In this document: one piece after another, positions 1,683 through 49,825 of the stretch
Position numbering within the stretch: the first letter of the stretch is position 1
Layout of the letters: each line of letters opens with the position of its first letter
Assembly: GCA_045631885.1 (NCBI GenBank)
Contig: JAZQVN010000035.1
Location: 67,726 to 131,725, forward strand
DNA from: Bacilli bacterium
GTDB taxonomy: Bacteria; Bacillota_I; Bacilli_A; RFN20; CAG-826
Reading direction: 5' to 3'
DNA: 64,000 bases
Position numbers and translations under genes: made by a program
Notes under the pieces: model-generated
The model's input: only the letters and a program-made list of their open reading frames with translations
What the model was told of the DNA's origin: nothing
Databases searched by the model: none

Positions 1683-3144
1683 TATTAATTACCTCCTCTA
1701 CTTTTTCTTCTTTCTTCTTTTCGCTATTGAAGAAACAATAACCAAATAAGAAGAGAATGATGAAGAATATATTGTTCATATAAAATGGAATAACTGTGTT
1801 AGAGAAAATCATTGGAGTGCAGTCGAAATTAACGAGTGCATACGCTAAAGAGATGATGATAAATCCTAAAATCAAGACTTTGTCTTGTTTAGCGTCATCG
1901 CTATTGTTGTAATACTTAATCATTCTTCTTATACCTATGACTAAAACCGCCACTAAGAAAATGACTCCGAAGAAACCAGATGAGAAGAAGGCATCAAAGA
2001 AGAAACTATTACTATCTTTTAATTGCCAAGTAGTAACACGGAATAAATAGACATAATCTCCATGGATTGGGAAACCAAATAATTTACCCATAATCGAAAC
2101 ACCATCACTGCTAACTGTAGTAAATAAACCATCAAGAATGGAATTATAAGCGCTAACAAATCTATTCGCGTTAAATAAACGATTTAATAAAGAATTACCT
2201 GTTGTTAAGTCTCTTAACCATCCAATACGGAAGGAAGCGATGTTATCACCAACACTATCTTGAGCGTTTAAGAACAAGAACAAGACACCGAAGGCAAATA
2301 AGCCACTCACTACTGCAGTAGCAATCTTTAATGGTTTCTTATTAAATTCAAATTTGGTGAATATAGCAATTAGACCAATGAGGACCGCAACACCAAATAA
2401 CATTAATAAAGTAATTTTACTAATAGTAAGGATGATAGTGATAAGGCCTAAAACACCAAATCCTAAATATGTTAAGAATAATTTCTTGTTCTCTTTATAT
2501 TTCATAAAGCCTAATGGTAAGAAGGCTGTTAATAAAATCATTGGATAGAAAGAGAAATATGATAATGAAACTTCCACCATTGAGAAATTCATTAAGAAAT
2601 AAGCCATTCCACCAATAGATTCAGGTGACCTAGAACCATCGTAATAATAGTAATAGTCAGAATAGCGGATTGTGTAAAAAGGAACAAACTGAATCATCGT
2701 CACAAATAGATTGATAAAGGTTAACAAGGCGATACCACTATAAATGACAATTAATGCATAACGAATTTTAAAGGCTCCAGTTAAATTTACAAAGTAACCA
2801 CTCGCAGCAAAACACGTTAATCCAAGTGGAACAAGAAATAAAAATGGGGAGTGATACATTAAAAAAGTTGGATCTTCTTTAAAATAAGAAAGTATCGAAA
2901 TAAGGCCAAAAAGTAATATTGGGAATAGGAAAAAGCCAAAACTTGCCACTCCATCAAGCTTTATTTGACGGAAAGTCACGACAATCGTTAATCCTAAAAT
3001 AACCACTGCTAAAATAGCGAAAAAGATGAAAGAACTACCGAGTGAAAAAGAGATGATCGCTAGTATCTCAAGTAACAAAAACGACACTGCTTTACCATAA
3101 CTCGATGGTTTTTGTGCTATTTTTTCCTGTTTTTCGTTATCCAT
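1663..3144 (-). CDS. Polytopic membrane protein, possibly O-antigen ligase/polymerase-like
   Basis: 493-aa ORF with more than 10 hydrophobic segments, next to an ATP-grasp surface-polymer gene. The functional guess rests on context only. Confidence 0.45.
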   Translation of the reverse strand: MDNEKQEKIAQKPSSYGKAVSFLLLEILAIISFSLGSSFIFFAILAVVILGLTIVVTFRQIKLDGVASFGFFLFPILLFGLISILSYFKEDPTFLMYHSPFLFLVPLGLTCFAASGYFVNLTGAFKIRYALIVIYSGIALLTFINLFVTMIQFVPFYTIRYSDYYYYYDGSRSPESIGGMAYFLMNFSMVEVSLSYFSFYPMILLTAFLPLGFMKYKENKKLFLTYLGFGVLGLITIILTISKITLLMLFGVAVLIGLIAIFTKFEFNKKPLKIATAVVSGLFAFGVLFLFLNAQDSVGDNIASFRIGWLRDLTTGNSLLNRLFNANRFVSAYNSILDGLFTTVSSDGVSIMGKLFGFPIHGDYVYLFRVTTWQLKDSNSFFFDAFFSSGFFGVIFLVAVLVIGIRRMIKYYNNSDDAKQDKVLILGFIIISLAYALVNFDCTPMIFSNTVIPFYMNNIFFIILFLFGYCFFNSEKKKEEKVEEVINNEVQNA

Positions 3145-3165
3145 AAGTAATATTTATATTACATT

Positions 3166-3196
3166 AAAAAAATAAAAAAGCGAGGAATTTCCTCGC
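3166..3196 (-). terminator. Rho-independent terminator downstream of small ORF 3217..3354
   Basis: GCGAGGA-att-TCCTCGC hairpin. An A-run on the plus strand gives a T-run after the stem on the minus strand. Confidence 0.6.
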
Positions 3197-3216
3197 TATA
3201 TTAACTGTTTAAAGAA

Positions 3217-3354
3217 TTAATCTTCGGTATCGAAATAATAATCGTCAACCATTCCGGTTTCGAGATATTCTTCCGCTTCAGCAAATGCTTCGATGATTTG
3301 TAATTCTTCTGAATCTGTGACTTCTTGGTTTTTGTCTCTTGGTCCAATGTACAT
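3217..3354 (-). CDS. Small acidic protein, 45 aa, unknown function
   Basis: Not in the ORF track because it is under 60 aa. Sequence: MYIGPRDKNQEVTDSEELQIIEAFAEAEEYLETGMVDDYYFDTED. AAGGAGA sits 7 nt before the ATG, with its own promoter upstream and a terminator downstream. Confidence 0.5.
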   Translation of the reverse strand: MYIGPRDKNQEVTDSEELQIIEAFAEAEEYLETGMVDDYYFDTED

Positions 3355-3391
3355 AACTTGTCTCCTTTGCTGGTAGAAAAATTCTGGGTCT

Positions 3392-3419
3392 ACTTTACCA
3401 TAGTGAGCACTATTGTCAA
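3392..3419 (-). promoter_or_regulatory. Sigma-A type promoter for the 45-aa ORF
   Basis: On the minus strand: TTGACA, 16 nt, then TAAAGT preceded by TGg (extended -10). Confidence 0.4.
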
Positions 3420-3518
3420 AGTTATTTTTGACTATTTTTAGACACTGTCCAAATCAGATTTTTTGTAACTTTTTTTCTTCTTAAAAAATGTGGGTTATAA
3501 GGTGGGTAATAAATATAT

Positions 3519-4373
3519 TTATTGAATTGTAACGCCTCCATCATTGAAGAATAAGATGCCTATAGTCTTTGGTCCGCAGTGACTGGTGATTGTCGCGCCA
3601 GCGACTGTCACATAGATATTCCTAAATCCTTTTTCATTTAACCAGTCTTTACAAGTCTCTATCATATCTTCACTTGCGTGTGAATGGGTAATAAAGACAA
3701 TGCTCTTATCTGGGTTAGTGAATTCTTCTAATGTATCGCGACAATATTCTTCAACACAGGCTAAGCTCTTTCCGCGATATTTGCTTCCAACTTCCATGCC
3801 ACCATCTTTAACAACGATTTGAGGTTTTAATCGTAATAACAACGCTCCTAATTTAGCTAAACTAGAACATCTACCACCTTTATGGAGATAGTTCAAAGTG
3901 TTAACCACAAAGCTCGCTTGGATATAAGGGATTCTTTTATCAACTTCACTTACTATCTGAGCAGCATTTAATCCTTTGTCTCTTAATATAGCAGCGTACA
4001 TTGCTAATAAACCAATTCCGGTAGAAAGAGATTTCGAATTTATAACATATAAATTATTAATTGTACGCGTACACATACACGCGTTAGAGTAAACTGAACT
4101 CAAACGATCACTTAATGAGAAATGGATAATCGCGTCATAGTCTTTCTTCAAATGATTGAAATAATCTTCAAATTCAAATTGATTAATCGCGCTTGTCTTT
4201 GGTAATATTCCCGTCTCTTCAACAAATTCAAAGATATCATCAGGAGTGATGTCTCCATCTTTTTCAAACCTCTCCCCTAGTTCAATGGTGAATGGGATAA
4301 CCTTGATATCGTACTTTTTGATTAGTTCTTTATCTAGGTCACTGGCGGTTTCAACGGAAATAGCAATCTTCAT
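3519..4373 (-). CDS. DegV family fatty-acid-binding protein
   Basis: MKIAISVETASDL...KVIPFTI...GILPKTSAINQFEF... matches the DegV fold pattern. Start placed at the internal MKIAIS; the ORF is open to 4430. Confidence 0.75.
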   Translation of the reverse strand: MKIAISVETASDLDKELIKKYDIKVIPFTIELGERFEKDGDITPDDIFEFVEETGILPKTSAINQFEFEDYFNHLKKDYDAIIHFSLSDRLSSVYSNACMCTRTINNLYVINSKSLSTGIGLLAMYAAILRDKGLNAAQIVSEVDKRIPYIQASFVVNTLNYLHKGGRCSSLAKLGALLLRLKPQIVVKDGGMEVGSKYRGKSLACVEEYCRDTLEEFTNPDKSIVFITHSHASEDMIETCKDWLNEKGFRNIYVTVAGATITSHCGPKTIGILFFNDGGVTIQ

Positions 4374-5690: not shown

Positions 5691-5705
5691 TTTCTTAAAA
5701 TATTT

Positions 5706-5732
5706 TTGGCACTTTACTTGACTAAGTGCTAA
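5706..5732 (+). promoter_or_regulatory. CIRCE (HrcA operator) copy 1, overlapping the -35 of the htpG promoter
   Basis: TTGGCACTT-N9-AAGTGCTAA against consensus TTAGCACTC-N9-GAGTGCTAA. TTGACT at 5718-5723 lies in the spacer, with TAAAAT 16 nt downstream. Confidence 0.7.
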
Positions 5733-5749
5733 TTTGTTATAAAATATAC

Positions 5750-5776
5750 TTGGCACTCCGAGAATTAGACTGCTAA
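5750..5776 (+). promoter_or_regulatory. CIRCE (HrcA operator) copy 2
   Basis: TTGGCACTC-N9-GACTGCTAA, 18 nt upstream of the htpG ATG region. Confidence 0.65.
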
Positions 5777-5793
5777 AAAGGAGATTATGTGAT

Positions 5794-7713
5794 ATGAAAG
5801 AAACGATGAAATTTGAAACCGAGAGTAAAGAATTACTCAATTTGATGATTAACTCCATTTACTCAAATAATGAAATATTCTTAAGAGAACTTATTTCTAA
5901 CGCATCTGATGCGATTGATAAATATAAATATTTATCTTTGACAAGTAACGGCAAAGTCCCATTATTAGATCACGATATCCATATCGAATTAAATAAGAAA
6001 AATAGAACAATCACTATTTCCGATAATGGTATCGGTATGAATAAAGAAGATTTGATTAACAATCTCGGCACCATCGCGAGAAGTGGATCAAAAGATTTTG
6101 TCAGCAAAATCAAAGAAGCTCAAGCCAAAAAAGATATCGATATCATCGGTCAGTTTGGTGTTGGTTTCTATAGCGCCTTTATGGTGGCTAACAAGATAGA
6201 GGTTTTAACCAAAAAATGCGATTCTGAAGCATACTTATTTACTTCTTCTGGTGAAGATAGTTACACGATTGAAGACGCTCAAAGAGAAAGCGTCGGCACC
6301 ACTATTACTTTATTCTTAAAGAAATCATCTAAAGATGTTGATTATGATAAGTATTTAGAAGAATATCAAATCAAAGATTTGGTTAAACGTTATAGTGACT
6401 ATATCCGTTATCCAATTAAGATGGTTTGCACAGTGAGAAAACCAAAACTAGACGCTGACGGTAAAGAAATTGAAAATGAAACAATGGAAGTTCAAGAAGA
6501 ACAAGTTCTTAACTCCATGGTCCCTCTTTGGAAGAAAAATAAGAAAGATGTCAGCGAAGAAGAATTAAATAAATTCTATCAAGAAAAATTCATGGATTAT
6601 GAAGATCCTCTCATCTCCTTATTCGTCTCTGTTGATGGCAAGGTGACATATAACTCATTATTATTCATTCCAAGTCACGCACCATATAACCTATATAGTG
6701 AGAATTATGAAAAAGGTCTCCAATTATACTCCAAAGGAGTATTTATCAAAGATAAAGCTCCAGAATTAATCCCTGATTATCTTAAATTCGTGAAAGGTCT
6801 CGTTGACTCTCCAGACCTCAACTTAAATATTTCTCGAGAAATTCTCCAACGCTCACCAGTGATGGAAAAAATCGCGGAGAATGTCGAGAAGAAGATTGTT
6901 GATAAATTAAAAGAAGTTCTTAAAGAAGATAAAGAGAAATATCTCAAATTCTGGAACAACTTCGGTGACCACATTAAGTTTGGTATCTACTCCACTTATG
7001 GAAGTAAGAAAGACTTATTACAAGATATCCTCTTATTCCATTCGTTAAATAACAATGATGAATTCATCACACTAAGTGAATATAAAGAGAAAATGGCCAA
7101 AGGCCAAAAGAATATCTATTATGTCTCTGGTGAGAATCTTGATTCTATCAAGTTATTACCTCAAATCGAAAGATATAAGAAACTCGGTTATGATGTCTTA
7201 CTCTTAGATCAAAAGATCGATGAATTCGCGGTTATGATGATGAGAGAATACGACAAAGTCGAATTCAAATCCATCAGCGAAGATTCCGTCGATGAATTAA
7301 CTAAAGAAGAACAAGAGAAGATTGAAGAAGTGACCACTGATTCAAGAAGATTATTAGATAATCTTAAAGAAGCCTTAAAAGAAGAAGTTGATGACGTTGT
7401 TATCTCTTCTAAATTAATTGATTCTCCAGTTTGCTTAAGCACAAAAGATGGTCTATCTCTTGAAATGGAAAAGACATTAAATGAACAGCCAGGTAATGAA
7501 GAAAGAGTGAAAGCCAAGAAAGTTCTCGAACTTAATCCTGAACACGACTTATTCAAAACATTCCTCGCTATTCAAGAAGATGATGAACTCGTTAAAGAAT
7601 ATGCTTCAGTCTTATATGATGAAGCAATGCTACTTGAAGGTAGAGAAATCGCCAACAAAAAAGAGTTTGTTAGAAAGCTCAACGAGCTAATGATTAAAGC
7701 GTTCAAGAAATAA
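5794..7713 (+). CDS. htpG: Molecular chaperone HtpG (Hsp90)
   Basis: ESKELLNLMINSIYSNNEIFLRELISNASDAIDK and GQFGVGFYSAFMVA are Hsp90 signatures. AAGGAGA RBS lies 9 nt upstream. Confidence 0.95.
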   Translation: MKETMKFETESKELLNLMINSIYSNNEIFLRELISNASDAIDKYKYLSLTSNGKVPLLDHDIHIELNKKNRTITISDNGIGMNKEDLINNLGTIARSGSKDFVSKIKEAQAKKDIDIIGQFGVGFYSAFMVANKIEVLTKKCDSEAYLFTSSGEDSYTIEDAQRESVGTTITLFLKKSSKDVDYDKYLEEYQIKDLVKRYSDYIRYPIKMVCTVRKPKLDADGKEIENETMEVQEEQVLNSMVPLWKKNKKDVSEEELNKFYQEKFMDYEDPLISLFVSVDGKVTYNSLLFIPSHAPYNLYSENYEKGLQLYSKGVFIKDKAPELIPDYLKFVKGLVDSPDLNLNISREILQRSPVMEKIAENVEKKIVDKLKEVLKEDKEKYLKFWNNFGDHIKFGIYSTYGSKKDLLQDILLFHSLNNNDEFITLSEYKEKMAKGQKNIYYVSGENLDSIKLLPQIERYKKLGYDVLLLDQKIDEFAVMMMREYDKVEFKSISEDSVDELTKEEQEKIEEVTTDSRRLLDNLKEALKEEVDDVVISSKLIDSPVCLSTKDGLSLEMEKTLNEQPGNEERVKAKKVLELNPEHDLFKTFLAIQEDDELVKEYASVLYDEAMLLEGREIANKKEFVRKLNELMIKAFKK

Positions 7714-7752: not shown

Positions 7753-8146
7753 TGGTGGAGCCGAGGAGAGTTGAACTCCTGTCCAGAGAAGGCTCTTCAA
7801 TAACGTCTACAGCTTAGACGGTATGAACTTTAACGTGTTTTGCATATCGACGGACTCTACACGCGAGACAAATTGTAACTTCATTAACGCCGTGTTAGTC
7901 TTCAAGCGTTAACTATCCTTTTGGTATGACACCACTACCAGGCGTGAAAGGCTAAAACCCTGGGTGATGCTGTGCCCGGCGCCTTGCGTCGGTCCCTAAC
8001 GTCGGGTGCTAATTAAGCAGCGCAGAGAACTTGAGCTCTAGGAGCTCTCATATAACTGTTGTCAGTTATTTTTGTTTTGGTTATCACGGTGACCAACCGG
8101 CTGCAGTTAGAGCCTAGCACATCCCTGTCGAAACCAGTACGACCCC
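7753..8146 (-). ncRNA. ssrA: tmRNA (transfer-messenger RNA)
   Basis: Minus-strand 5' end GGGGTCGTACTGGTTTCGACAGGG and 3' end GGACAGGAGTTCAACTCTCCTCGGCTCCACCA (T-arm plus acceptor plus CCA). An internal tag ORF ends ...GCT GCT TAA, with the stop in the loop of a TGCT/AGCA helix. Confidence 0.92.
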
Positions 8147-27430: not shown

Positions 27431-28054
27431 TTATCTCCACTGACCCGGAAGGACTTTTTTCTCCATGTACGGGAATTGACGGTCAAATTCTTCTAATTCC
27501 GCCATATATTTTTCATCATGAATATCGCAGTCGCAACAATCTGGTTCATAGAACTTCCCGGCGATATCTTTCATCGATCCTTCTTTTAGTTCATAACCCA
27601 TAAATGCATCGAAATTTGATCCATCTGGCATAGTGACACCAAATTCTTTCGCCTCTTTAAAACCAAATTTTGGATAATATGTCGGAACTCCACAAATAAA
27701 TATGGCTGGGTAATCGGTTAACTTAGCTAATTTGATTGATTCTAAAAGCAACGTTTTGCCAATTCCTTTTCTTTGATATTCCGGATCAACACATAAAGGT
27801 CCAAAAGTCAAAACATCAATGTCGCCATTTTTGGTTTCTAATCGGCACTTAGTGTATAAGATAAAACCCACAATTTTATTATCTAGCTTTGCTAGAAGAG
27901 ATAAACTCGGAACATAATTTGCATCATTAAAGAGTCTATGAACCAAATAATGTTCATCGCATCCAGGCATATTTAAATTCCAAAAAGATCTTTTTGCTAA
28001 ATATTTTATTTCGTAATAGTCTTTTTCTAATATGTGTTCAATTTTAATATCCAT
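27431..28054 (-). CDS. GNAT family N-acetyltransferase (YhbS-like)
   Basis: LCVDPEYQRKGIGKTLL (motif A), with a Cys-rich C-terminal extension. Confidence 0.75.
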   Translation of the reverse strand: MDIKIEHILEKDYYEIKYLAKRSFWNLNMPGCDEHYLVHRLFNDANYVPSLSLLAKLDNKIVGFILYTKCRLETKNGDIDVLTFGPLCVDPEYQRKGIGKTLLLESIKLAKLTDYPAIFICGVPTYYPKFGFKEAKEFGVTMPDGSNFDAFMGYELKEGSMKDIAGKFYEPDCCDCDIHDEKYMAELEEFDRQFPYMEKKVLPGQWR

Positions 28055-28059
28055 GATGT

Positions 28060-29239: not shown

Positions 29240-29254
29240 ATAAATAAGTATAGC

Positions 29255-29280
29255 AAAAAGCCGTCCATGATGGACGACTT
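29255..29280 (-). terminator. Terminator; member of the AAAAAGCCG...GGACGACTT hairpin family
   Basis: Minus strand GTCGTCCAT/ATGGACGGC stem (one G-U pair) followed by TTTTT, just after the stop at 29295. Confidence 0.6.
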
Positions 29281-41655: not shown

Positions 41656-41766
41656 ATGTAAATACCCCTTTGCTTAAAAAATATTACCACATTGAAAAAA
41701 GCATTAATAAATACATATAATGAAATGGTTGTTATACTTTTTTTGTATAATAGGAGACTAATAATC

Positions 41767-42648
41767 ATGGACTTAAAAACATTAAGATACTTCGTCGTTG
41801 TCGCAGAAGAATTAAACATCACTAGAGCAAGTAAGATTTTATCAATTAGTCAACCTCCACTTAGTAATCAAATTAAAAATTTAGAAGAGGAACTAAATAC
41901 CACTTTATTTATAAGAGGAAAAAGACAATTAGAATTAACTGATGAAGGGAAATACTTATATCAAAAAGCCAAAGATATACTTCTTTTAAGCGATAGAACA
42001 GTTAATGAAATGCTATTGATGAACAAAGGCCTAAGCGGAACAATTGGTATTGGTCTAGTCGAAGGAACTGCGCCAGATATTGCCGCAGAATGGATATCTG
42101 AGTTTTTAAAAAAGCATCCGCAAGTGAAGTTTAGGATTTTAGATGGGAACAGCGATGACCTTATCGATAAAATGAGAGCGGGTCTCATCTCTTTAGCGGT
42201 CATTACCTCACCTTATGATCAAATCCTTTTAAATAGTTTTAAAGTTGGGGAAGAAAAGATGGTTGCTTTAATGAGCAAGAATCATGCTTTAGCTAAATCA
42301 AGCAATAGCGTCATCACCATCAATGAGTTAGCAGATGAAAAGATTATTGTCCCTAGTAGAAAAGCACACGTCGACGCTATTAGGAAATGGTTTAGACAAA
42401 TTAATAAAGATTCAAAAATTGTCTGTGAAATGGATAATTACCTTGATGCTGCCGCTATGGCGGGTAGAGGGGTTGGTATTTCTATATTTCCTAAAACAGC
42501 GTATATTTTAAACAATTCATTAGTTTCAAAAGAAATTGAAGGCGACGACAAAAAGGTTGATTATCTTTTCGTTTGGAGAAAAGGCCATCAACTTTCTGTG
42601 TTAGAAGAAAACTTTATTGATTTTATCAAAGATAAATATAGTAAATAG
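41767..42648 (+). CDS. LysR family transcriptional regulator
   Basis: MDLKTLRYFVVVAEELNITRASKILSISQPPLSNQIKNLEEEL. Divergent from the aminotransferase-pyrG string. Start set at the MDLKTL ATG. Confidence 0.85.
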   Translation: MDLKTLRYFVVVAEELNITRASKILSISQPPLSNQIKNLEEELNTTLFIRGKRQLELTDEGKYLYQKAKDILLLSDRTVNEMLLMNKGLSGTIGIGLVEGTAPDIAAEWISEFLKKHPQVKFRILDGNSDDLIDKMRAGLISLAVITSPYDQILLNSFKVGEEKMVALMSKNHALAKSSNSVITINELADEKIIVPSRKAHVDAIRKWFRQINKDSKIVCEMDNYLDAAAMAGRGVGISIFPKTAYILNNSLVSKEIEGDDKKVDYLFVWRKGHQLSVLEENFIDFIKDKYSK

Positions 42649-42675
42649 TTGTACTTCATCACAACAAAACGTAGC

Positions 42676-42703
42676 AAAAAGTCGCCATTAATTTGGCGAC
42701 TTT
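42676..42703. terminator. Terminator between convergent LysR and lipoprotein genes
   Basis: GTCGCCA-ttaatt-TGGCGAC hairpin with AAAAA on the left and TTT on the right. Confidence 0.55.
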
Positions 42704-42726
42704 CATATTATTCTTTATTCTTGTGA

Positions 42727-45459
42727 TTATTTAACAATAGTAGGATTTACTAAGGTAATAATTCCATCTTTAAATTGAATTGTCGCGGTGAAATTAACAA
42801 TTGGAACAATACCATCAGTTTCTCCTTCCATAACATAAGAAGAATAATCCTCTGCTAAATGGCTAAAGCCATAATATGTAGGTTCCCAGTTATGATCCAT
42901 AATGATGACGAAACCTTTACCATTGGTGAATAAAACTGTTTTATAAGAATAGATGCCTGTTTGTGAATCGAATGTCAAATCATTTCCGGTTGAAGCATCC
43001 CAACCATTAAATTCACCAACTAGAGAATAGGTGTGATCTTGAACGTAGCCACCTTCTCCAGAGTCACCACCTCCATGAATAGTAAAATGGAGCATATTTA
43101 CGCCGTTATTATTGATGATGGTAATTCTGAAATCGACATCCTTAACCACTCTAATATTATTGTCGCTAGCTTGAACTAAATATTCGCCACAAACATCTTC
43201 AGGGTTCAATATATCGCTATAGCCAAGTTTGCCAGCTTGTTCTCCGCGATTATATCCAATTACATAGAATAAATCGTTTGCGAATAATCCGTGGTCGATA
43301 TATAAACGACCCTCAGTGTCTGTACCAAATGGGAATTCAGGATTACCCTTGATAAATAGTTCAGCCCCGTCAAAACCTTGAACAGGAATATCCGATGTGA
43401 AATAAACTATTCTTATTGAATACTCTCCAATATTCTCATAATTAATACAGTATCTAACATCTTCTTGATCAAAATAATATTTATATTGATTATCTATGTC
43501 TTCATTTTCTTTCCAACCATTACTCTCTAACTTGGCTTTGAAAGCATCAAAAACTTGACTGCTTACTCCGAAATAATCAAAGAAGTCTGATTGTTCACCT
43601 GGATGATTAAACACCAAGCCTTCTGGAAGCAATATATCTTGATTAAGTACAGAGAATATCGCTTTATCAGCGTTTGAATATGAGCAATAGAAATCTTTAG
43701 TTTCTTGAATCTTTAAATAGCTTCCATCAAAACCGATTTTAAACACCTTATTTCTTGCTGTATCAGTGATCGCATAAGTTGGGTTTTTCTCAATTACTGG
43801 GTAGTCCATTTTTAAAAGTTTTTGTATATAGCTTTGTCTATCTTGTTCTTCAATACCGTTTAAATAGATAGAACAGCTAAGCGGATCAGCACTTTGAGAA
43901 GTTACTTCAACACTAGCGACGAATAGTTTAGAAGAGATAGATGGTACTAATCTTTCTAATCCCATTTCTTTCAAAGTTTCAAATGGCCAACCGATGACTG
44001 AATCGCTATATGGATTACAATTAATTCTTAAAATCTTATAATCTAAGATTTCTCCATCGGCCACCAAATTAACCTGAATTAGTAAAAGTGGTTGATGATA
44101 TGTATTAACGATTTCAACAACTGAATCGGTTGTTTTCACCAATATTGAGGTTCCAGAATCTAATAAAACATTAAGTTGTAAGTCTTCTATAGAAGCTTCT
44201 CCAATTAATTCTTGTTTATTATCTAAAGCAAGAATTTTTGGAATAAATGGGGATTCGTAGTGATATGAATCTTGATTATTAATCAAATTGGAGAAACTAA
44301 CTTTATCTGTTCCTAAATAGCATTCGTCACCTTCAGTCATTTCTCTTTCTCCACGATAATCCACGACTTTTAAGGACGCCGGTTTTCTTTCGTGTCCCCC
44401 TTCATCTTCGTCGCGAGTGACTAAAGAATAAATAACGTCTTTACCAAATATATTCGAGAACTCAGAGTACATTGTTTGGATAACATTGTTTTTGTTTCCT
44501 TGTTTATTAAAGAAAGGAGCCTTATCTATATCGGTAGCGTTAAGACCTAATTCATAAAATAAATGAGCGACTCTTTCTCTTCTATCAGTGTTTCTATTTA
44601 AATCTTTAGCTTTATAAAGTGCACTATTCTTATACCAAGAAAAAGATCCGACTTCATAAGAAACGCCATCATTAATGTAACTAGCAAATGTTTGATGTTC
44701 ATTATCTTTCACCAATGGAATATGAGCTTCTAAATCAAATTTTCTCCATTCCTTAATTTGGTTCTCTTGAACATCTACATAGTCATATTCATAGACGCAA
44801 CGATCATAATAAGGAATACCTGTTTCGTCGTTGTTAGTTAACATAGTTAAAATGTATGTTGGGTTTTCCTTATCCATGTTATAGTCAAGTTCCATAAACA
44901 CATACCAATCCGTTTGATAAGTATCAGTATCTTTACTTAAAGAAATTGAGAAAGAAACATCTGCGGTAATTAAATCGTTTGCGTCAATATTAATCGCTAA
45001 ACCTAAAGTGAAGGAATAGTCATATTCAAATTGAGATTTATGTTCACCTTCAAAACCAGTTTCAGAGTCAATATAAACTTTGCCAGTAACTGTATCGTAA
45101 TATTTAGTATCAAAAGAGTAATTACTACCGATTTTATCGAATGCATATTTGAGACATTGGAATTGAATCATTGGTGGTTGAGTATAACTCAAATCATCAA
45201 TCACATCACCTTGATTATCTTCTGATGAAAAAATAGAAAACAGGGAATCAAGTGTCGAACTAGCCGCTGCGCGAGAGAGTTTCTTATTTAATTGTTTGGC
45301 ATTATTACTTGAAACATTTCTAAAGCTGCTTTCCACTCCAGAAAAAGCGGTTTTGACCTTTTCATATGGCGTTGTAGGCGGTACGTATTTGTTATGTGTT
45401 CCGCACCCTGTTAATAACGATATGGCTAAAAAAGTACCGAATAATCCTAGCTTTTTCAT
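42727..45459 (-). CDS. Large surface lipoprotein with a C-terminal CBM48/E-set-like module
   Basis: MKKLGLFGTFLAISLLTGC lipobox (start at Met9 of the listed ORF). The last ~100 aa contain YSLVGEFNGWD...MDHNW, reminiscent of glycogen/starch-binding E-set domains. Confidence 0.6.
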   Translation of the reverse strand: MKKLGLFGTFLAISLLTGCGTHNKYVPPTTPYEKVKTAFSGVESSFRNVSSNNAKQLNKKLSRAAASSTLDSLFSIFSSEDNQGDVIDDLSYTQPPMIQFQCLKYAFDKIGSNYSFDTKYYDTVTGKVYIDSETGFEGEHKSQFEYDYSFTLGLAINIDANDLITADVSFSISLSKDTDTYQTDWYVFMELDYNMDKENPTYILTMLTNNDETGIPYYDRCVYEYDYVDVQENQIKEWRKFDLEAHIPLVKDNEHQTFASYINDGVSYEVGSFSWYKNSALYKAKDLNRNTDRRERVAHLFYELGLNATDIDKAPFFNKQGNKNNVIQTMYSEFSNIFGKDVIYSLVTRDEDEGGHERKPASLKVVDYRGEREMTEGDECYLGTDKVSFSNLINNQDSYHYESPFIPKILALDNKQELIGEASIEDLQLNVLLDSGTSILVKTTDSVVEIVNTYHQPLLLIQVNLVADGEILDYKILRINCNPYSDSVIGWPFETLKEMGLERLVPSISSKLFVASVEVTSQSADPLSCSIYLNGIEEQDRQSYIQKLLKMDYPVIEKNPTYAITDTARNKVFKIGFDGSYLKIQETKDFYCSYSNADKAIFSVLNQDILLPEGLVFNHPGEQSDFFDYFGVSSQVFDAFKAKLESNGWKENEDIDNQYKYYFDQEDVRYCINYENIGEYSIRIVYFTSDIPVQGFDGAELFIKGNPEFPFGTDTEGRLYIDHGLFANDLFYVIGYNRGEQAGKLGYSDILNPEDVCGEYLVQASDNNIRVVKDVDFRITIINNNGVNMLHFTIHGGGDSGEGGYVQDHTYSLVGEFNGWDASTGNDLTFDSQTGIYSYKTVLFTNGKGFVIIMDHNWEPTYYGFSHLAEDYSSYVMEGETDGIVPIVNFTATIQFKDGIITLVNPTIVK

Positions 45460-45531
45460 AAGTAAATCTCCTTGTATTATCACTATATACTAAAAAGGAT
45501 ATCAAAGCCAATTTATTGTATACTGAAATTA

Positions 45532-45623
45532 TTGTCCCAGGACGATGACTATTCTCAAAATTAGGACAGACCCGATTCTCCGATGACGGTCTCCATTTTT
45601 GAGCCACTCAACTTAGAATCGAC
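45532..45623 (+). repeat. ~92-nt islet repeat, copy 1
   Basis: TTGTCCCAGGACGATGAC...GATTCTCCGATGACGGTCTCCAT...AGAATCGAC. Identical to copy 2 at 75/92 positions by ungapped hand alignment. Confidence 0.8.
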
Positions 45624-45652
45624 CCCGACACAACAAGCTGCCCGAATAGCAC

Positions 45653-45697
45653 AAAAAAGCCGCCCATAATGGACGACTTATTCTGCTTTTTGACGTT
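45653..45697 (-). terminator. Left copy of the duplicated rpsR-type terminator (45-bp direct repeat)
   Basis: AAAAAAGCCGCCCATAATGGACGACTTATTCTGCTTTTTGACGTT matches 49548..49592 at 43/45 positions. The hairpin pairs fully, with 2 G-U pairs, only on the minus strand. Confidence 0.75.
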
Positions 45698-45780
45698 TGT
45701 CCCCGTCTAAACCCAACTTCCCTCAAAAGTTCAAACGTGACTTCCCCGATTTCGACATCATCAGTTGTCTGACTGCGTCC

Positions 45781-46182
45781 TTATTTGCTTAACACTCTTG
45801 CTTGCATTTCATCACACCACTTATTCCATTTAATGTCATATTCTTCTTTTGACACTATTCTTTTTAGGAGGTCGGCAGGCGAGAGTATTCCTTGCTTTTT
45901 ACATTCTTTAACACATTCACGGTACATGTTCCAACTCAAATCATCTTCATCCCAAATTAAAGGCACAGATTCTATTCCTGATAATAATGCGACTACCAAT
46001 CGAGTGTGACCATCGGTGATAACGATTTCACCATCTAGCTGTTTAATTGGTATTGACTCAAAATTTGATAGGTCTTTTGGATCGAACCATTTCTTGACGT
46101 TTTCAATTTTTTCATCAGAAATATAAAATTGTGATGGTTGTAAATCTCTTATTGTAAGTGAATGAATATCTATATTTTTCAT
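45781..46182 (-). CDS. Small ParB/Srx-fold (ParB N-terminal-like) domain protein
   Basis: LQPSQFYISDEKIENVKKW...IVITDGHTRLVVAL resembles the ParB-like nuclease/NTPase core (DGHHR-type box). Start set at MKNIDI, since the longer listed ORF starts at a TTG. Lies 14 nt after the Fic stop. Confidence 0.5.
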   Translation of the reverse strand: MKNIDIHSLTIRDLQPSQFYISDEKIENVKKWFDPKDLSNFESIPIKQLDGEIVITDGHTRLVVALLSGIESVPLIWDEDDLSWNMYRECVKECKKQGILSPADLLKRIVSKEEYDIKWNKWCDEMQARVLSK

Positions 46183-46196
46183 GTAAAAACCAAAAA

Positions 46197-47168
46197 TTAT
46201 ATAATCTCCCAATACCCGAATCTTTTGCCGTTAATTCTTTTAATCTTGTTTTCTTTACTCAAAAGAGCTATGACGCTATCAATAGTTCGTGGCGAAACAC
46301 CAATTCTACTTGCCAATTCATCAATACTGATTCTCGGATTAGCTTTGATTAATTCTAAAACGCGTGTTTCCCTTGGGGTGGTTTCATTATCATTAGAGTC
46401 AATACTTATACGCAAGTCTCTATTTCTTAATATGTTATGTTCATTAAGAAGTAAATTTCTTAAAAACATAATAATGTATTTTTTATCATCATATATGCCT
46501 TTACGGATGAACTTGAAATTAGCCCTCACCAAGGCGTTTCTAAAAAACCAGGCATTTTTAGCAAAAACATCATTTGTTACATCATATCCTAGCGATCTTA
46601 GATATTTGATAAAAAATACCGCAGTGGTACGAGTATTTCCTTCCTGAAACGCGTGAATTTGCCAGAGATTAGAAACAAAAGTTGCTAAATGTTCAATGAC
46701 TTTATCCTCGGACAAATCAGCATATTTAAAATTTCTTTCAGTCTCAAAATCATACTCTAGAGTGTTCCTGAGTTCATGATAATCGCCATAAATGACAGAT
46801 CTACCATCAAGAACCCACTCTTTTTTTATGAAGTTATAATCTCTTAATTTTCCAGCATGGTTGAATACGCCTTCAAATAGTTGCTTATGAATGCTAACCA
46901 GTTGTCCAACTGTAAATGTAAAAGAATCGTCAGAAATAATTTGCGCAATCCTATTTGACACAATGTCTGCCTCTTCTGTTCTTGCATCTTCGTTAGGTTT
47001 ATTTTCATAATAAGAACTAATTATTTTATCTAGCTCATCTAAAGATATTTCTCCTTTGACATATCTATCAGCTTGCGATAAAAAATATGTCGAATTCTTA
47101 AGTCCGTCAACATCTTGAAGGCCAATTCCAGTTTCAATTAAATATTTGTTCGAATACTTATTTTCCAT
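46197..47168 (-). CDS. Fic/DOC family protein with a C-terminal winged-helix domain
   Basis: Fic motif variant HAFQEGNTRTTA (canonical HxFx[DE]GNGRxxR) at residues 172-183. The C-terminus TRVLELIKANPRISIDELASRIGVSPRTIDSVIALL looks like a wHTH. Confidence 0.8.
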   Translation of the reverse strand: MENKYSNKYLIETGIGLQDVDGLKNSTYFLSQADRYVKGEISLDELDKIISSYYENKPNEDARTEEADIVSNRIAQIISDDSFTFTVGQLVSIHKQLFEGVFNHAGKLRDYNFIKKEWVLDGRSVIYGDYHELRNTLEYDFETERNFKYADLSEDKVIEHLATFVSNLWQIHAFQEGNTRTTAVFFIKYLRSLGYDVTNDVFAKNAWFFRNALVRANFKFIRKGIYDDKKYIIMFLRNLLLNEHNILRNRDLRISIDSNDNETTPRETRVLELIKANPRISIDELASRIGVSPRTIDSVIALLSKENKIKRINGKRFGYWEII

Positions 47169-47263
47169 AGGAAAATATTATCACATTCAACTTCAAAACG
47201 CAACTCCAAAACGCAATTTAAGTATTTTTGCGCTTTGAAATTATTCACACAAACTCAAACATC

Positions 47264-47289
47264 AAAAAAGTCGCCGCTATGGACGACTT
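47264..47289 (-). repeat. Degenerate third copy of the rpsR-type terminator hairpin (orphan)
   Basis: AAAAAAGTCGCCGCTATGGACGACTT is close to the 45653 and 49548 copies. No minus-strand gene ends immediately upstream of it. Confidence 0.6.
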
Positions 47290-47404
47290 AATTTTCATTG
47301 ATTTAGCCCGATCTACGAGCCCTTACCATTCGCTTTCGACTAATGCCCTGTTGAGGAAGCTACAATTTGAACAACTTAGGCAAATCGCAACTATCCAACA
47401 ACAG

Positions 47405-47496
47405 TTGTCCCAGGACGACGACCGTTCTCCGTTTTAAGACAGATCCGACTCTCCGACGACGGTCTCCATATTTGTTCCACACGACTCAGAATCGAC
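47405..47496 (+). repeat. ~92-nt islet repeat, copy 2
   Basis: TTGTCCCAGGACGACGAC...GACTCTCCGACGACGGTCTCCAT...AGAATCGAC. Confidence 0.8.
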
Positions 47497-47574
47497 GGCG
47501 GCTGGTATTTCGTTAGCTACGACGACGAACGCGCGACGTGGGTCGACCGGGATAGCCTAAAACGAGTCCGATGA
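47494..47574 (+). pseudogene. G+C-rich coding-looking remnant
   Basis: The open frame reads DGGWYFVSYDDERATWVDRDSLKRVR*. There is no start codon or RBS, and its composition is unlike the host genes. Confidence 0.25.
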
Positions 47575-47703
47575 CGATGGATTTATATTAATATAAATAG
47601 TTCAATAAAAGGCACATTATATTGTTTTTTTTATTCATAAAAATACAAAAACTTTTTCATTTGTGGCATGCTTCATAATAATATATAGGCAGGAGGAGCC
47701 AGT

Positions 47704-48426
47704 GTGACCACGATAAAAGAAATTAATGTTGGTAAAATTGATCCATCCATTAAAGGAGTCTTAGAGAAGTTAGTTACTATCAAAGGCTTAGACTTTTATG
47801 TGATTGGTGGTCTTCTATGTCAGTACTACTTAAAAGACCACGCTAGATATACAAAAGACGTTGATATCATTTTCAACGATGAACAAGAAGTCGTGGAAAG
47901 AGAATTAAAGAAAGCATTCGGCGATATTCATTTGTTCTATGCTGAAGATACAGAGAATTTCTATGGTGGCACTTTTACTTGCTTTACCAGAGTTAATGAG
48001 TTATTAGGGCAAATAGAAGGAAAGAAGATTAAATTCTTAAAAGATGTTAAGGGCAAACAATATTCTTATGAAGGCATTAACTTTAGAGGTGTTGATATTG
48101 AATATTGTATCGCTGAAAAGGTTGTCACTTTGTTAAATGAATTATGTAGACCATACAAACATTTAGTGGACCTCTATTCCTTTACTCAAATCGATCAATC
48201 ATTAATCGATAAGAAAGAAATAAAGAGATACATGCTACTAATAAACGCTCATGAGAATGTATATAGAAAAGCACATAATCTTAAGGAATATGAACTTCCT
48301 AAAGAAATTAAGGAAGATAAAGAGTTAAAACCACCAATAGTGGTCCCAACACTACAAAGTAAATATAACGTTTCTAGAGAAGTAATGAAATCTAGTGTGA
48401 ATGAGTGGTTGAAAACCATTATCTAA
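47704..48426 (+). CDS. AbiEii/AbiGii-like nucleotidyltransferase (DUF1814-type toxin family)
   Basis: GTG start with AGGAGG 7 nt upstream. NTase signature VIGGLLCQYYLKDHARYTKDVDIIF (GG-x15-DxD). The 240-aa size fits the family. Confidence 0.65.
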   Translation: MTTIKEINVGKIDPSIKGVLEKLVTIKGLDFYVIGGLLCQYYLKDHARYTKDVDIIFNDEQEVVERELKKAFGDIHLFYAEDTENFYGGTFTCFTRVNELLGQIEGKKIKFLKDVKGKQYSYEGINFRGVDIEYCIAEKVVTLLNELCRPYKHLVDLYSFTQIDQSLIDKKEIKRYMLLINAHENVYRKAHNLKEYELPKEIKEDKELKPPIVVPTLQSKYNVSREVMKSSVNEWLKTII

Positions 48427-48480
48427 AAGTATAATAAAAATATAAAAATCATAATTTAATAATGAAAGGTAGAACAAAGT

Positions 48481-48771
48481 ATGAGAGAAGAATTATTAAA
48501 AGGTTTAAGCAAACAACAACTTGAAAAAGCAAGCAAATGTAAAAACAAAAATGAATTACTTGCTCTTGCCAAAGAAGAAGGCGTGGAATTAACCAGCGAA
48601 CAACTCGAAGCTGTTTCCGGTGGTGCTTGTAGCCCTCATCAACAATTCCGCACAACAGCGTGCCCACAATGTGGTGAACAAATGCAAGGGGAATTCGTAG
48701 AAACCACCCCAGGTGATGGTAAATATCATTTCGTTTGTAAACATTGCGGTTTCGAATGGTTTGAAAAATAA
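48481..48771 (+). CDS. Nif11-like double-glycine leader fused to a zinc-ribbon-like Cys-rich core (96 aa)
   Basis: Leader: MREELLKGLSKQQLEKASKCKNKNELLALAKEEGVELTSEQLEAVSGG. Core: ACSPHQQFRTTACPQCGEQMQGEFVETTPGDGKYHFVCKHCGFEWFEK (CPQC...CKHC knuckles). Lies 54 nt after the NTase gene, and the two share one terminator. Confidence 0.65.
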   Translation: MREELLKGLSKQQLEKASKCKNKNELLALAKEEGVELTSEQLEAVSGGACSPHQQFRTTACPQCGEQMQGEFVETTPGDGKYHFVCKHCGFEWFEK

Positions 48772-48812
48772 TCATTAAAGACCACTAATATGAATATTAG
48801 AAGGGAATAGTT

Positions 48813-48839
48813 TTTGCTATTCCCTTTTTAACAAAATAT
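48813..48839 (+). terminator. Terminator of the NTase / leader-peptide operon
   Basis: GGGAATAG-tttttg-CTATTCCC hairpin followed by TTTTT. Confidence 0.75.
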
Positions 48840-48920
48840 AGCAATTTCCCCCGTCTTGATACGACTAGGTCATCGCGAAGCCATCAAGATTATATTTTCT
48901 CAAAAAGTGCCCTCCGCCAG

Positions 48921-49011
48921 TTGTCCAATTTTGCCACGACTACTTCGACGACGACCATTCTCCTGAAAAGCACGAAACCGACTCTCCGAAGCGGTACTGA
49001 CTTCAGTAATC
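48921..49011 (+). repeat. ~92-nt islet repeat, copy 3 (diverged, with indels)
   Basis: Shares TTGTCC, GACGACGACCATTCTCC, CCGACTCTCCGA (12/12 with copy 2) and GACTTCAGTAATC blocks. Its right end overlaps the last codons and stop of the 49003..49479 gene. Confidence 0.6.
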
Positions 49012-49479
49012 CGTTTTTTCCTTAACCACGATTCGGGATTCGTCAATGTAGCAATCGTCGCCATTCACGTAGCATTCCAAAACCATGTCGGGCTTAAGAA
49101 GCACAGCGTCTTTGTAACTAATATATAGCGAATGCATGAACTGGTTACCCGAATCCCCGCGAAAAGAAACGATAAGTTGGTATCCGTTTCTAACGCGCAA
49201 AACGTTATGCACTTTGCATTCCGTCTTTCTACCGATTTGCATGATTTTTCGACTTTGTCCGCCTTTAATAAGCATCAACAAACCAACTCCCACTAATAGC
49301 AAAGGGGCAAAACCGCCTGCGATTAAAGGAAACAAATAAAGTGGCATTATAAAGCTCTCCATACGGCTGGAAACATAAACCAGAACAACAGTAACGACTG
49401 CAGAAAACACGCCAGCAACCAAACCAAATATCAGTAATAATAGACCGCCTGTACGATTTCCTTGATTCTTCATTTTCAC
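49003..49479 (-). CDS. Membrane protein with a C-terminal soluble beta-rich domain; compositionally foreign
   Basis: 158-aa ORF with 2-3 N-terminal TM helices. Its codon usage is visibly richer in G/C than its neighbours, and it uses a TGA stop. Confidence 0.55.
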   Translation of the reverse strand: MKMKNQGNRTGGLLLLIFGLVAGVFSAVVTVVLVYVSSRMESFIMPLYLFPLIAGGFAPLLLVGVGLLMLIKGGQSRKIMQIGRKTECKVHNVLRVRNGYQLIVSFRGDSGNQFMHSLYISYKDAVLLKPDMVLECYVNGDDCYIDESRIVVKEKTDY

Positions 49480-49547
49480 ACCTCCAGGATGGTTTGCTAT
49501 CTTCGATAGCTATAAAAAATATACAGCATTCCTTTTCGTGCATCAAG

Positions 49548-49592
49548 AAAAAAGCCGCCCATAATGGACGACTTTTGCTGCTTTTTGACGTT
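49548..49592 (-). terminator. rpsR terminator; right copy of the 45-bp direct repeat
   Basis: Lies 5 nt after the rpsR stop. Minus strand GTCGTCCAT/ATGGGCGGC stem followed by TTTTTT. Confidence 0.8.
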
Positions 49593-49597
49593 ACTAA

Positions 49598-49825
49598 TTA
49601 GTCAGCAACGTATGGGAGAAGAGCCATGAATCTTGCATTTTTGATTGCTTTAGCAACTTCTCTTTGATGTTTCGCACATGTGCCTGTTGCTCTACGGCTG
49701 GAAATTTTGCCGTTAGGAGTAATCATGGATTTTAATGTTTCAACATCTTTGTAATCAATGAATTTTGATTTAGATTTGCAGAACACACAAACTTTCTTGT
49801 GTGGTCTCACTTTTTTGAATGCCAT
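49598..49825 (-). CDS. rpsR: 30S ribosomal protein S18
   Basis: KKVCVFC...IDYKDV..L...I...GKI..RR.TG.CAKHQR. Confidence 0.95.

Follow-up and report, generated by a model that had tools for sequence, protein, structure and literature searches.

A probable integrase-less cassette array between rpsR and a convergent LysR-type gene, punctuated by two conserved noncoding elements, in uncultured rumen Erysipelotrichaceae

Described systems and the variable interval behind rpsR

Variable loci that hold defence, toxin-antitoxin and surface-antigen genes and no mobility genes are common, and their construction is poorly understood. In the minimal mobile elements of Neisseria, variable cassettes lie between conserved genes, have no mobility genes and are exchanged through recombination in the flanking DNA. 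PMC1538595 cites the minimal mobile element concept, and flank-mediated transfer has been proposed for cDHS1 of Pseudomonas aeruginosa (PMC10250203). Here we analyse a 64-kb stretch of DNA from a Bacilli bacterium (contig JAZQVN010000035.1; 'the window', within which unlabelled coordinates are positions), and in it the variable interval between rpsR, which encodes ribosomal protein S18, and a convergent gene for a LysR-family regulator. We consider it probable that this interval is a hotspot behind rpsR occupied by a cassette array that has no integrase and is remodelled by homologous recombination between its repeats or in its flanks and by illegitimate joins. The cassettes are punctuated by two conserved noncoding elements, the terminator-bearing U5T and the G+C-rich R-long. 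On our best reading, this punctuation, serving as a recombination substrate, is what the locus adds to the biology of hotspots and cassette arrays.

The two boundaries of the interval are:

49598..49825, minus strand: rpsR (Pfam Ribosomal_S18, 1.7e-25), the conserved proximal anchor
41692..42648, plus strand: gene for a LysR-family regulator (NCBIfam LysR-type matches down to 3.4e-51), the conserved, convergent distal boundary; the true start is likely 41767

The relatives used for comparison (L001-L041) are metagenome contigs or metagenome-assembled genomes (MAGs), all metagenome-derived, and their titles point to uncultured rumen Erysipelotrichaceae or 'Bacilli' MAGs. Ten short contigs encode an RpsR protein identical to that of the window (DNA 86-91% identical), and none shares the window arrangement, so the locus is a genuine variable hotspot, as the original prediction had supposed. 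In six of them (L001, L003, L004, L005, L007 and L010) the sequence that runs downward from window position 47407, which is U5T, starts 7-10 nt past the rpsR stop, and a Fic gene follows wherever the contig is long enough. Three others (L002, L006 and L009) have unrelated AT-rich DNA behind rpsR. L008 is an empty site, with rpsR, a terminator and then the 3′ end of the LysR gene; the gap is ~87 nt there versus 6.95 kb in the window. Conserved flanks, alternative contents, one empty site and no mobility genes found are the features of a hotspot. The empty site also places the limits of the variable interval at 42649-49597, a frame that includes a 918-aa lipoprotein gene and is larger than the islet of 45484-49597 first proposed.

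The locus resembles core defence hotspots and minimal mobile elements in having a variable interval between conserved genes, differing cassettes, an empty site and no mobility genes, in its content, rich in defence and toxin-antitoxin genes, and in recombination as the evident driver. Exchange by homologous recombination, as expected of a hotspot of that type, is seen in L038, which has one chimeric repeat where L037 has two copies. Unlike minimal mobile elements, the array is an ordered series of cassettes and not a single slot, and it is punctuated by U5T and R-long, which occur across species and are themselves substrates of recombination.

A cassette array without an integron integrase is known as a CALIN. 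Chromosomal integrons and CALINs, such as the Vibrio superintegrons with their VCR repeats, are likewise arrays of small cassettes with a conserved structured repeat, many toxin-antitoxin cassettes and a variable end that adjoins a fixed anchor; cassettes separated by a conserved repeat are found here in the window and at ~30 loci. Unlike integrons, the array has no IntI or attC cores that we could find, its repeats measure 145 and 220 nt, and its cassettes are self-expressed, lie in either orientation and join at variable positions. No intI or other recombinase gene was present among the window cargo and 20 ambiguous open reading frames (ORFs), or in the flanks of L037. A search for attC cores by pattern (RYYYAAC ... 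GTTRRRY), not by covariance model, found one palindromic pair in 42657-49600, inside the Fic gene, with two matches counted versus 1.6 expected by shuffling; attC cores were rejected because none lies at a cassette boundary. Complete integrons have not been found in Firmicutes or Tenericutes genomes (PMC4889954).

In staphylococci, phage-inducible chromosomal islands (PICIs) of the SaPI4 family integrate at the rpsR 3′ end (PMC8407400). They share with our locus the rpsR 3′ end as anchor and the direct repeats that flank inserted DNA, but they also have a tyrosine integrase, an att core of 15 bp and the PICI core genes, all of which are missing here. The vsp, vlp and vsa loci of Mollicutes are variable surface-lipoprotein loci with an invertase and vrs-type sites. 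As in those loci, different large lipoprotein genes each stand behind a conserved upstream noncoding block, here R-long; unlike them, our arrays show no evident site-specific invertase or vrs-type sites and also hold toxin-antitoxin and defence genes.

U5T, R-long and the terminators

The noncoding features of the window that bear on the array are the following:

49548..49592, minus strand: T1, a short-U tail (AACGTCAAAAAGCAGCAA) and T hairpin terminator with a 12-pair stem and U tract, 5 nt past the rpsR stop
48896..49002, minus strand: R-c, a fragment of the common R-long form; 48895-48955 is 86-95% identical to R-long at ~15 loci
47405..47600, minus strand: R-b, a window-type R-long copy that abuts the U5T start; 82% identical to R-a over 92 nt
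47261..47406, minus strand: U5T, ~145 nt, which contains the terminator T2; a structured element ending in a terminator, covariance-model match 117.6 bits
45698..45780, minus strand: preT3, a remnant of the R-long 3′ end, which ends in ...GGGGACAA; 86.8% identical to L037:4625-4700
45653..45697, minus strand: T3, a second copy of the short-U and T terminator, 43/45 identical to T1
45525..45652, minus strand: R-a, a short R-long form between T3 and the lipoprotein promoter, part of a 92-nt repeat family
42678..42703, strand not assigned: T-like palindromic hairpin terminator (AAAGTCGCCATTAATTTGGCGACTTT, 10-pair stem) between the lipoprotein gene and the convergent LysR gene
29254-29280, minus strand: T-like hairpin terminator outside the islet, behind an unrelated membrane-protein gene

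U5T consists of a G+C-rich 5′ part (U5′) followed by AAATCAATGTAAATT, AAGTCGTCYATNATGGGCGGC and a U tract. In most genomes it stands directly behind the rpsR stop, and further copies lie between cargo genes. A search with nhmmer gave 55 matches, ~35 of them full length; copies lie at 47261-47406 (minus strand) of the window, L020:4680-4826, L037:4703-4847 and ~30 more sites. Beyond the ten contigs described above, 24 further loci came from a hairpin pattern search of species-representative genomes and from a search of JGI metagenomes with a conserved 27-mer of R-c, and five more from protein-based look-ups. Between cargo genes, the order is the 3′ part of R-long, then U5T, then the 5′ part of R-long (L021, L025, L027, L030, L032, L033 and L037), and ~30 contigs from rumen MAGs and metagenomes have arrays of this type. 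In L037, ~10 kb contain seven U5T copies, and L033:12765-13090 is a tandem unit free of cargo. Both elements are absent from IMG/VR, GenBank phages and PLSDB plasmids; the R pattern had two matches in viral contigs, which we rejected as chance (contigs of 57-64% GC with no other homology).

Folding of U5T differs between its strands. On the rpsR-sense strand of L020:4676-4826 the minimum free energy is -43.3 kcal/mol, with z = -2.9 (2/200 shuffles as good), and on the antisense strand z = +0.4. RNAalifold predicted the terminator alone on a MAFFT alignment; the other helices come from averaged single-sequence pair probabilities. In the resulting model of three hairpins and a terminator, 87-88% of cells are paired versus 27-50% with partners slid, and 14-18 of 35 pairs show compensatory changes versus 6-10 in the slid controls, counts that are biased by this origin, as the structure derives from the tested sequences themselves and the second alignment was fitted to it. 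Neither U5T nor R-long had an Rfam 15 match at E < 1 in the window region and seven related loci, and a known RNA family was rejected for the repeats on that ground. U5T is a candidate for a new structured RNA motif in the 3′ untranslated region (UTR) of the rpsF-ssb-rpsR operon, reused behind cargo genes, and we propose that it represents the ancestral 3′ UTR and terminator of rpsR. A single long hairpin around T with U5′ and R as its arms was rejected, there being no long inverted repeats.

R-long (~220 nt) runs from GTGCTGTCTGGGCGG to TTTGGACGATTACA, begins directly where the U tract of T ends and in most cases leads into a lipoprotein gene or the next U5T; it lies upstream of lipoprotein genes in L020, L026, L034, L035 and the window. 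Its copies are 85-95% identical across genomes whose rpsR-lysS region is ~66-78% identical to that of the window. Copies at L020:6494-6722, L026:5975-6197, L034:4225-4449 and window 48896-48955 illustrate the element, which carries three direct TTGGAC(A/G)A motifs. We rejected R-long both as a structured RNA (folding z ~ +1 on both strands) and as a decayed rpsR pseudogene (nothing found by nhmmer with an rpsR profile, E = 1.1).

In the window, R-a and R-b represent a lineage-specific R-long form. They constitute a second repeat family that the original prediction had missed (45532-45623 versus 47405-47496, 82% over 92 nt); part of a third copy, at 48947-48989 inside R-c, matches R-b. The start of R-a, GTGCTATTCGGGCAGCTTGT, matches the start and middle of R-long, like the deleted form at L033:12822-12952, and the junction of the R-b end with U5′ is of the same kind as 20 other internal junctions. 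Sequences like R-c are found in L018, L020, L025-L037 and L041. The counterpart of preT3 in L037 (4625-4700) likewise precedes a U5T copy.

Like Rho-independent terminators, T1, T2 and T3 each have a G+C-rich hairpin and, behind it on the transcribed strand, a U tract; they lie at 49576..49550, 47289..47268 and 45679..45657 of the minus (rpsR) strand. G·U pairs in the stems would be C·A mismatches on the opposite strand, so the hairpins are minus-strand RNA signals. The chance expectation of the 27-nt hairpin core in the window is 0.00. The 45-bp direct repeat from which the first reading of the locus started is real, with 43/45 positions identical between 45653-45697 and 49548-49592 and the identity reaching 18 nt past the hairpin, and the third terminator at 47264-47289 is confirmed. 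This third copy, T2, had been called degenerate; it is instead a common allele of the same hairpin (loop ATAGC/ATAGT), frequent in relatives. Nor is the 45-bp pair a target-site duplication, as the hairpin recurs behind many unrelated cargo genes and at 29254-29280. The repeat is generic in its hairpin, which follows many unrelated genes, but not in its 18-nt tail, which is specific to T1 and T3. The T-like hairpins at 29254-29280, which the original prediction had also missed, and at 42678-42703 indicate that this hairpin type is a house terminator of the lineage. T1 and T3 are a short variant in which 18 nt take the place of the U5T 5′ part; a similar variant is found at L013:5448-5473. T1 stands behind rpsR and T3 behind the R-long end remnant, and full U5T copies hold both contexts in relatives. 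T1 and T3 are thus two copies of a recurrent terminator module that normally ends an array unit.

The G+C-rich patches noted in the islet also exist; they are noncoding punctuation repeats and not foreign genes. Four intergenic stretches of the islet have a GC content of 0.39-0.43 (0.47 for 47258-47600) versus an intergenic median of 0.31 for the window, where comparable noncoding GC is found in the tmRNA region only. The tmRNA gene itself lies at 7753-8146 on the minus strand (Rfam 119.9 bits; predicted tag peptide DNSYMRAPRAQVLCAA). Against 42 window genes, Fic, its partner, AbiEii, the lipoprotein and the Zn-ribbon ORF are within ~1.5 standard deviations in GC and third-position GC (GC3), and the 158-aa membrane ORF deviates (GC 0.419, GC3 0.434, z 2.3/2.7). 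Composition as proof of foreign cargo was rejected, since this one ORF alone is atypical. The U5T and R-long punctuation is common to about 30 related contigs.

Recombination and the assembly of the array

The most direct evidence on how such arrays change comes from L037 and L038, which are from different samples and 99.6-99.8% identical. L037 has an extra 3,727 bp, with a DUF4177 gene, a 111-aa ORF, a GNAT gene and HipBA with an rpsR 3′ fragment. This block is flanked by 324-bp direct repeats, each comprising U5T and positions 1-178 of R-long, which are 91% identical to each other. The single repeat of L038 is a chimera, identical to copy 1 on the left (to column 125) and to copy 2 on the right (from column 169), with the crossover within a 43-nt identical stretch of U5T, AGGCCCTGAATTTAGGCTAAATCAATGTAAATTAAGTCGTCCA. 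Since 43 nt is far below the k = 141 implied by the contig name (k141_...), an assembly jump or a collapsed repeat is an unlikely source of the pattern. It is the product of recombination between two punctuation copies, a process that adds or removes cassette blocks, and one natural event of this kind has been caught at nucleotide resolution.

Further exchange is recorded within U5T itself. L018 joins a 5′ half of type A to a 3′ half of type B, the copies of the window and L025 have a common 5′ half and different 3′ halves, and other combinations are seen in L022 and L035. Mosaics with differing breakpoints fit general recombination or gene conversion better than one fixed crossover point.

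Judged by nucleotide identity, the cargo is shown to be far more similar between genomes than the core genes are. Between the window and L037, identity is 71.7% for rpsF-rpsR, 81% for Fic and its partner, 87.6% for the lipoprotein gene (counterpart L037:14464-17260), 92% for the R-long core and 95-98% for a relic of the Fic 3′ end. The window Fic gene is 95.5% identical to that of L021, 93.9% to that of L026 and 89% to that of L003, which has the identical RpsR protein. A Phd/YoeB cassette is 96-97% identical in L025, L036 and L037, where its neighbours differ, and the homology stops just beyond its own promoter and terminator, not at a common site.

These comparisons bear on the simplest alternative, that nothing here is mobile, three hairpins having independently evolved into similar terminators amid ancestral gene content. 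T-like terminators do occur at 29254-29280 and 42678-42703, and most of the cargo is host-like in composition. Against this, the 43/45 identity runs 18 nt past the hairpin, relatives with the identical RpsR protein hold different or no content at this place, and the identity of cargo across genomes far exceeds that of core genes. The idea is already contradicted by the comparative sequence data, and we regard it as scarcely credible.

Illegitimate joins are visible as well. In L020, the HipA stop codon is fused through a 9-nt microhomology, AGAATTAGC, to a 64-nt diverged rpsR 3′ fragment, behind which stands a second U5T; a homologous HipA-rpsR′ junction, with a 50-nt fragment, is present in L037 and L039. 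Orphan rpsR 3′ fragments inside arrays were observed at L020:6270-6345, L037:7776-7825 and L033:6383-6418, the last inverted and 97% identical to the window rpsR over 36 nt.

Such fragments could also be read as scars. Decayed integrative elements, either SaPI4-like or integrase-less and cis-mobilisable, might have integrated serially at the rpsR 3′ end, leaving attL and attR as the repeats, with the integrase lost or acting in trans. In staphylococci, islands with tyrosine integrases are documented to use the rpsR 3′ end as an integration hub (PMC8407400), duplicated rpsR 3′ fragments adjoin the second U5T in L020 and L037, and direct repeats frame the cargo. However, no integrase was seen in ~30 arrays or in the window, and the SaPI4 att core was rejected because the sequence AAAGAAGAACAATAA is absent near rpsR; its three 2-mismatch matches elsewhere are within chance. 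Cassette boundaries vary from case to case, the HipA/rpsR′ junction is a microhomology join in a coding region, and the repeats of the observed event are 324 bp long, 91% identical and mosaics of U5T types. We judge this explanation unlikely, if the most serious of those we weighed.

The window can be placed in the same frame. Relative to the relatives that read rpsR-U5T-Fic, it differs by an indel of 2.19 kb (47408-49596), which holds T1, the membrane ORF, R-c, the AbiEii/Zn-ribbon genes and R-b. Its ends fall at the rpsR stop and at the R-b/U5T junction and not, as the original prediction would have had it, at the 45-bp repeats. Because the rpsR-U5T junction is the majority state across the family, the block from T1 to R-b is most simply an addition to an rpsR-U5T-Fic array, which would have been made on its rpsR-proximal side. 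The same result would follow if a donor array had supplied a replacement through crossovers in rpsR and U5T. Recombination between T1 and T3 could in turn delete 3,895 bp and leave rpsR-T-R-long-lipoprotein. This order matches L013, where rpsR-U5T-R-long-lipoprotein stands behind rpsR, and L020, where it stands behind the internal rpsR′ fragment. In this respect the frame set by the two repeats keeps predictive value. The original prediction had also proposed to look in relatives for rpsR followed directly by the lipoprotein gene, with one terminator copy between them; L008 lacks the lipoprotein, and L013 has the order just given. The earlier reading of the islet as a serial insertion of mobile cargo is partly supported, in that the content was assembled in several steps; its division into two modules does not hold, there being at least four.

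Taken together, the favoured integrase-less array would work as follows. The segment would be part of a chromosomal cassette array between rpsR and the convergent LysR gene of uncultured rumen Erysipelotrichaceae, whose modules would be self-contained units (toxin-antitoxin or defence genes, XRE fusions and large surface lipoproteins) separated by U5T and R-long as conserved noncoding punctuation. Repeated behind every module and closely alike from one species to the next, the punctuation would provide portable homology. Strains and species would exchange modules by homologous recombination in rpsR or in the punctuation after DNA uptake, new junctions would arise by illegitimate (microhomology) joining, and no recombinase encoded by the element would be involved. 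The building principle is legible here, a terminator-bearing structured element and a G+C-rich spacer repeated with each cassette and kept similar across species. If the account is true, it would offer a testable explanation for the swapping of defence and surface genes in these bacteria, and U5T and R-long would be simple sequence probes for such arrays in metagenomes.

Several points weigh against this account. Only one recombination event has been caught directly, and gain and loss would leave the same L037/L038 pattern. The crossover maps to the best-conserved portion of U5T, which is also the place where one would look for the action of a site-specific enzyme, and the duplicated rpsR 3′ fragments of L020 and L037 look like the attL and attR of integrases that use gene 3′ ends. 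In ~29 junctions, U5′ has a sharp left edge (TGT...) and R-long a sharp right edge (...ACA), which pure homologous recombination does not explain. Nor does it, by itself, account for the G+C richness of R-long and its conservation across species; these might stem from co-transfer with cargo in the recent past or from GC-biased gene conversion at a hot spot of recombination. The account does not cover the first embedding of a new cargo gene between punctuation elements. The recombinase survey covered the window and the arrays of the relatives, which leaves room for an unlinked enzyme elsewhere in the genome, and every relative is a metagenome assembly.

The sharp edges invite a second explanation, a dedicated capture platform resembling an integron, in which an unlinked recombinase recognises U5T or the junction of the R-long end with U5′ and inserts circular cassettes next to rpsR. 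Conserved repeats with sharp edges at every cassette boundary, with ...ACA and TGT... set 3-6 nt apart at the junctions, would suit such an enzyme; in one subtype (L016, L032b) the junction is a 13-bp inverted repeat around a 6-7-nt spacer. The window indel lies at the rpsR-proximal end, and the toxin-antitoxin-rich cargo recalls the Vibrio superintegrons. Yet no attC-type cores lie at the boundaries and no intI is present in the window, the cassettes have their own promoters and terminators and occur in both orientations, and the position of cargo relative to the repeats varies (inside R-long, after T or inside U5′). The inverted-repeat similarity is marginally above shuffles (p 0.01-0.08), and the U5T mosaics indicate general recombination. 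We hold an insertion platform of this kind to be quite improbable. A closely related claim, that U5T and R-long form the recombination site of a dedicated and so far undescribed cassette-capture system at the rpsR 3′ end, a Gram-positive counterpart of the integron with an unlinked recombinase and with U5T as a new structured RNA/DNA motif marking each cassette, appears to us doubtful, if slightly less so.

The same termini raise a third possibility, that the unit from U5T to R-long is a non-autonomous transposon with TGT...ACA ends, inserted past the rpsR stop in the manner of Tn7 and piled up head to tail, sometimes with cargo. In its favour are those ends, where the U5′ start and the window-type R end show a short inverted similarity (TTGTCSCAGGAC), the orientation-specific placement 7-13 nt past the rpsR stop and the cargo-free tandem unit L033:12765-13090. 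Of the marks of Tn7-like elements (tnsABC/tniQ-type genes, TGT...ACA termini with repeated transposase sites and a 5-bp duplication), the TGT...ACA junctions are seen, but no transposase genes occur in any array and there is no consistent target-site duplication. Terminal inverted repeats were rejected: their similarity is no more than marginal (p 0.01-0.08), and the common R-long type lacks it, sharing only TACA at its end with the U5′ start. Moreover, the proximal block of the window has no left end (T1 has no U5′), and U5T acts as an RNA element on one strand. This makes a transposon very unlikely.

The absence of mobility genes extends to the relatives and to the remainder of the window. 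Inspection by eye of the cargo ORFs of L013-L036 revealed neither an integrase nor a transposase, and the Pfam labels precomputed for L037-L040 include none; an IS605 OrfB gene occurs in L041 only, which is a different locus. In the window, where the original prediction had likewise reported no integrase or transposase, Pfam and NCBIfam scans found no recombinase domain among the islet cargo and the 20 ambiguous ORFs, and the other ORFs are housekeeping genes by eye.

Cargo genes and their partners

The islet genes listed in the original prediction are all present. Together with the lipoprotein gene, the cargo of the window is:

49003..49479, minus strand: membrane ORF, 158 aa, compositionally atypical
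48481..48771, plus strand: ORF of 96 aa that runs opposite to the array and combines a Nif11-like leader (GG motif) with a four-Cys Zn ribbon
47704..48426, plus strand: AbiEii-like nucleotidyltransferase (Pfam AbiEii 6.6e-07, 29.9 bits, cut-off 22.5; PADLOC AbiEii 1.5e-05)
46197..47168, minus strand: Fic/Doc-family protein with a C-terminal winged helix-turn-helix (HTH) (Pfam 2.4e-12; PADLOC PDC-S72 1.5e-122, a candidate defence gene)
45781..46182, minus strand: ParB/Srx-fold protein, 133 aa, the Fic partner; the ORF list starts it at a TTG at 46212
42727..45483, minus strand: lipoprotein, 918 aa, signal LLTGCG, the last cargo gene of the variable interval

Across the arrays, the cargo includes HipBA, Phd/YoeB, MNT/HEPN-like pairs, Fic with the ParB-fold protein and AbiEii with the Zn-ribbon peptide, and further XRE-NUDIX and XRE-hydrolase fusions, GNAT, a small kinase-like protein and many large lipoproteins. 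The GNAT gene in the L037 array (5695-6303) is 78.7% identical to window 27447-28055, which sits outside the array.

The partner of Fic has no match in Pfam, NCBIfam or PADLOC and no family at the sequence level. Its AlphaFold (AF2) model has a predicted local distance difference test score (pLDDT) of 94, and among the top 50 PDB matches listed by Foldseek almost all are of ParB/Noc/KorB/SerK/Srx type, with probability up to 1.0 and TMq 0.40-0.45 over ~85-120 residues. A TDGHTR motif is invariant in 48 homologues. By its modelled fold and the invariant TDGHTR, the ORF at 45781-46182 belongs to the ParB/Srx superfamily, whose marks are a ParB N-terminal or sulfiredoxin fold and a conserved nucleotide-binding motif of the Gly-x-x-Arg type; with 252 unannotated homologues, it stands for a ~130-aa family that has no Pfam or NCBIfam model. 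The ParB-fold gene lies directly downstream of the Fic-HTH gene (PDC-S72) in the window and in L037-L040 (L037:10001-10324). This adjacency, which becomes an overlap if the TTG start at 46212 is used, suggests that Fic-HTH and the ParB-fold protein form a two-gene module.

The AbiEii-like nucleotidyltransferase has no AbiEi partner and is paired with the 96-aa protein, both in the window (47704-48771, plus strand) and at L024:1817-2885; the whole module (47657-48847) is 78% identical to L024:2932..1741. The 96-aa ORF itself has sub-threshold matches only, to Nif11, Zn-ribbon and ribosomally synthesized and post-translationally modified peptide (RiPP) leader models. Its homologue next to AbiEii in L024 is 82% identical at the amino-acid level, and paralogues occur in L024 and L025, where they also stand alone in the arrays (L024:1197-1490; L025:226-519 and 7293-7586). 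The membrane ORF belongs to no Pfam, NCBIfam or PADLOC family. Look-ups of the exact proteins, alternative start residues included, found no record of the membrane ORF, the ParB-fold ORF or AbiEii.

Finally, pieces of the array are also seen away from rpsR. At L041:231-1361 and 2935-4098, a ParB-fold homologue, an R-long remnant and an R-long fragment lie beside EamA, IS605 OrfB/TnpB and rpmH-rnpA, and array pieces may have been relocated to this different context.

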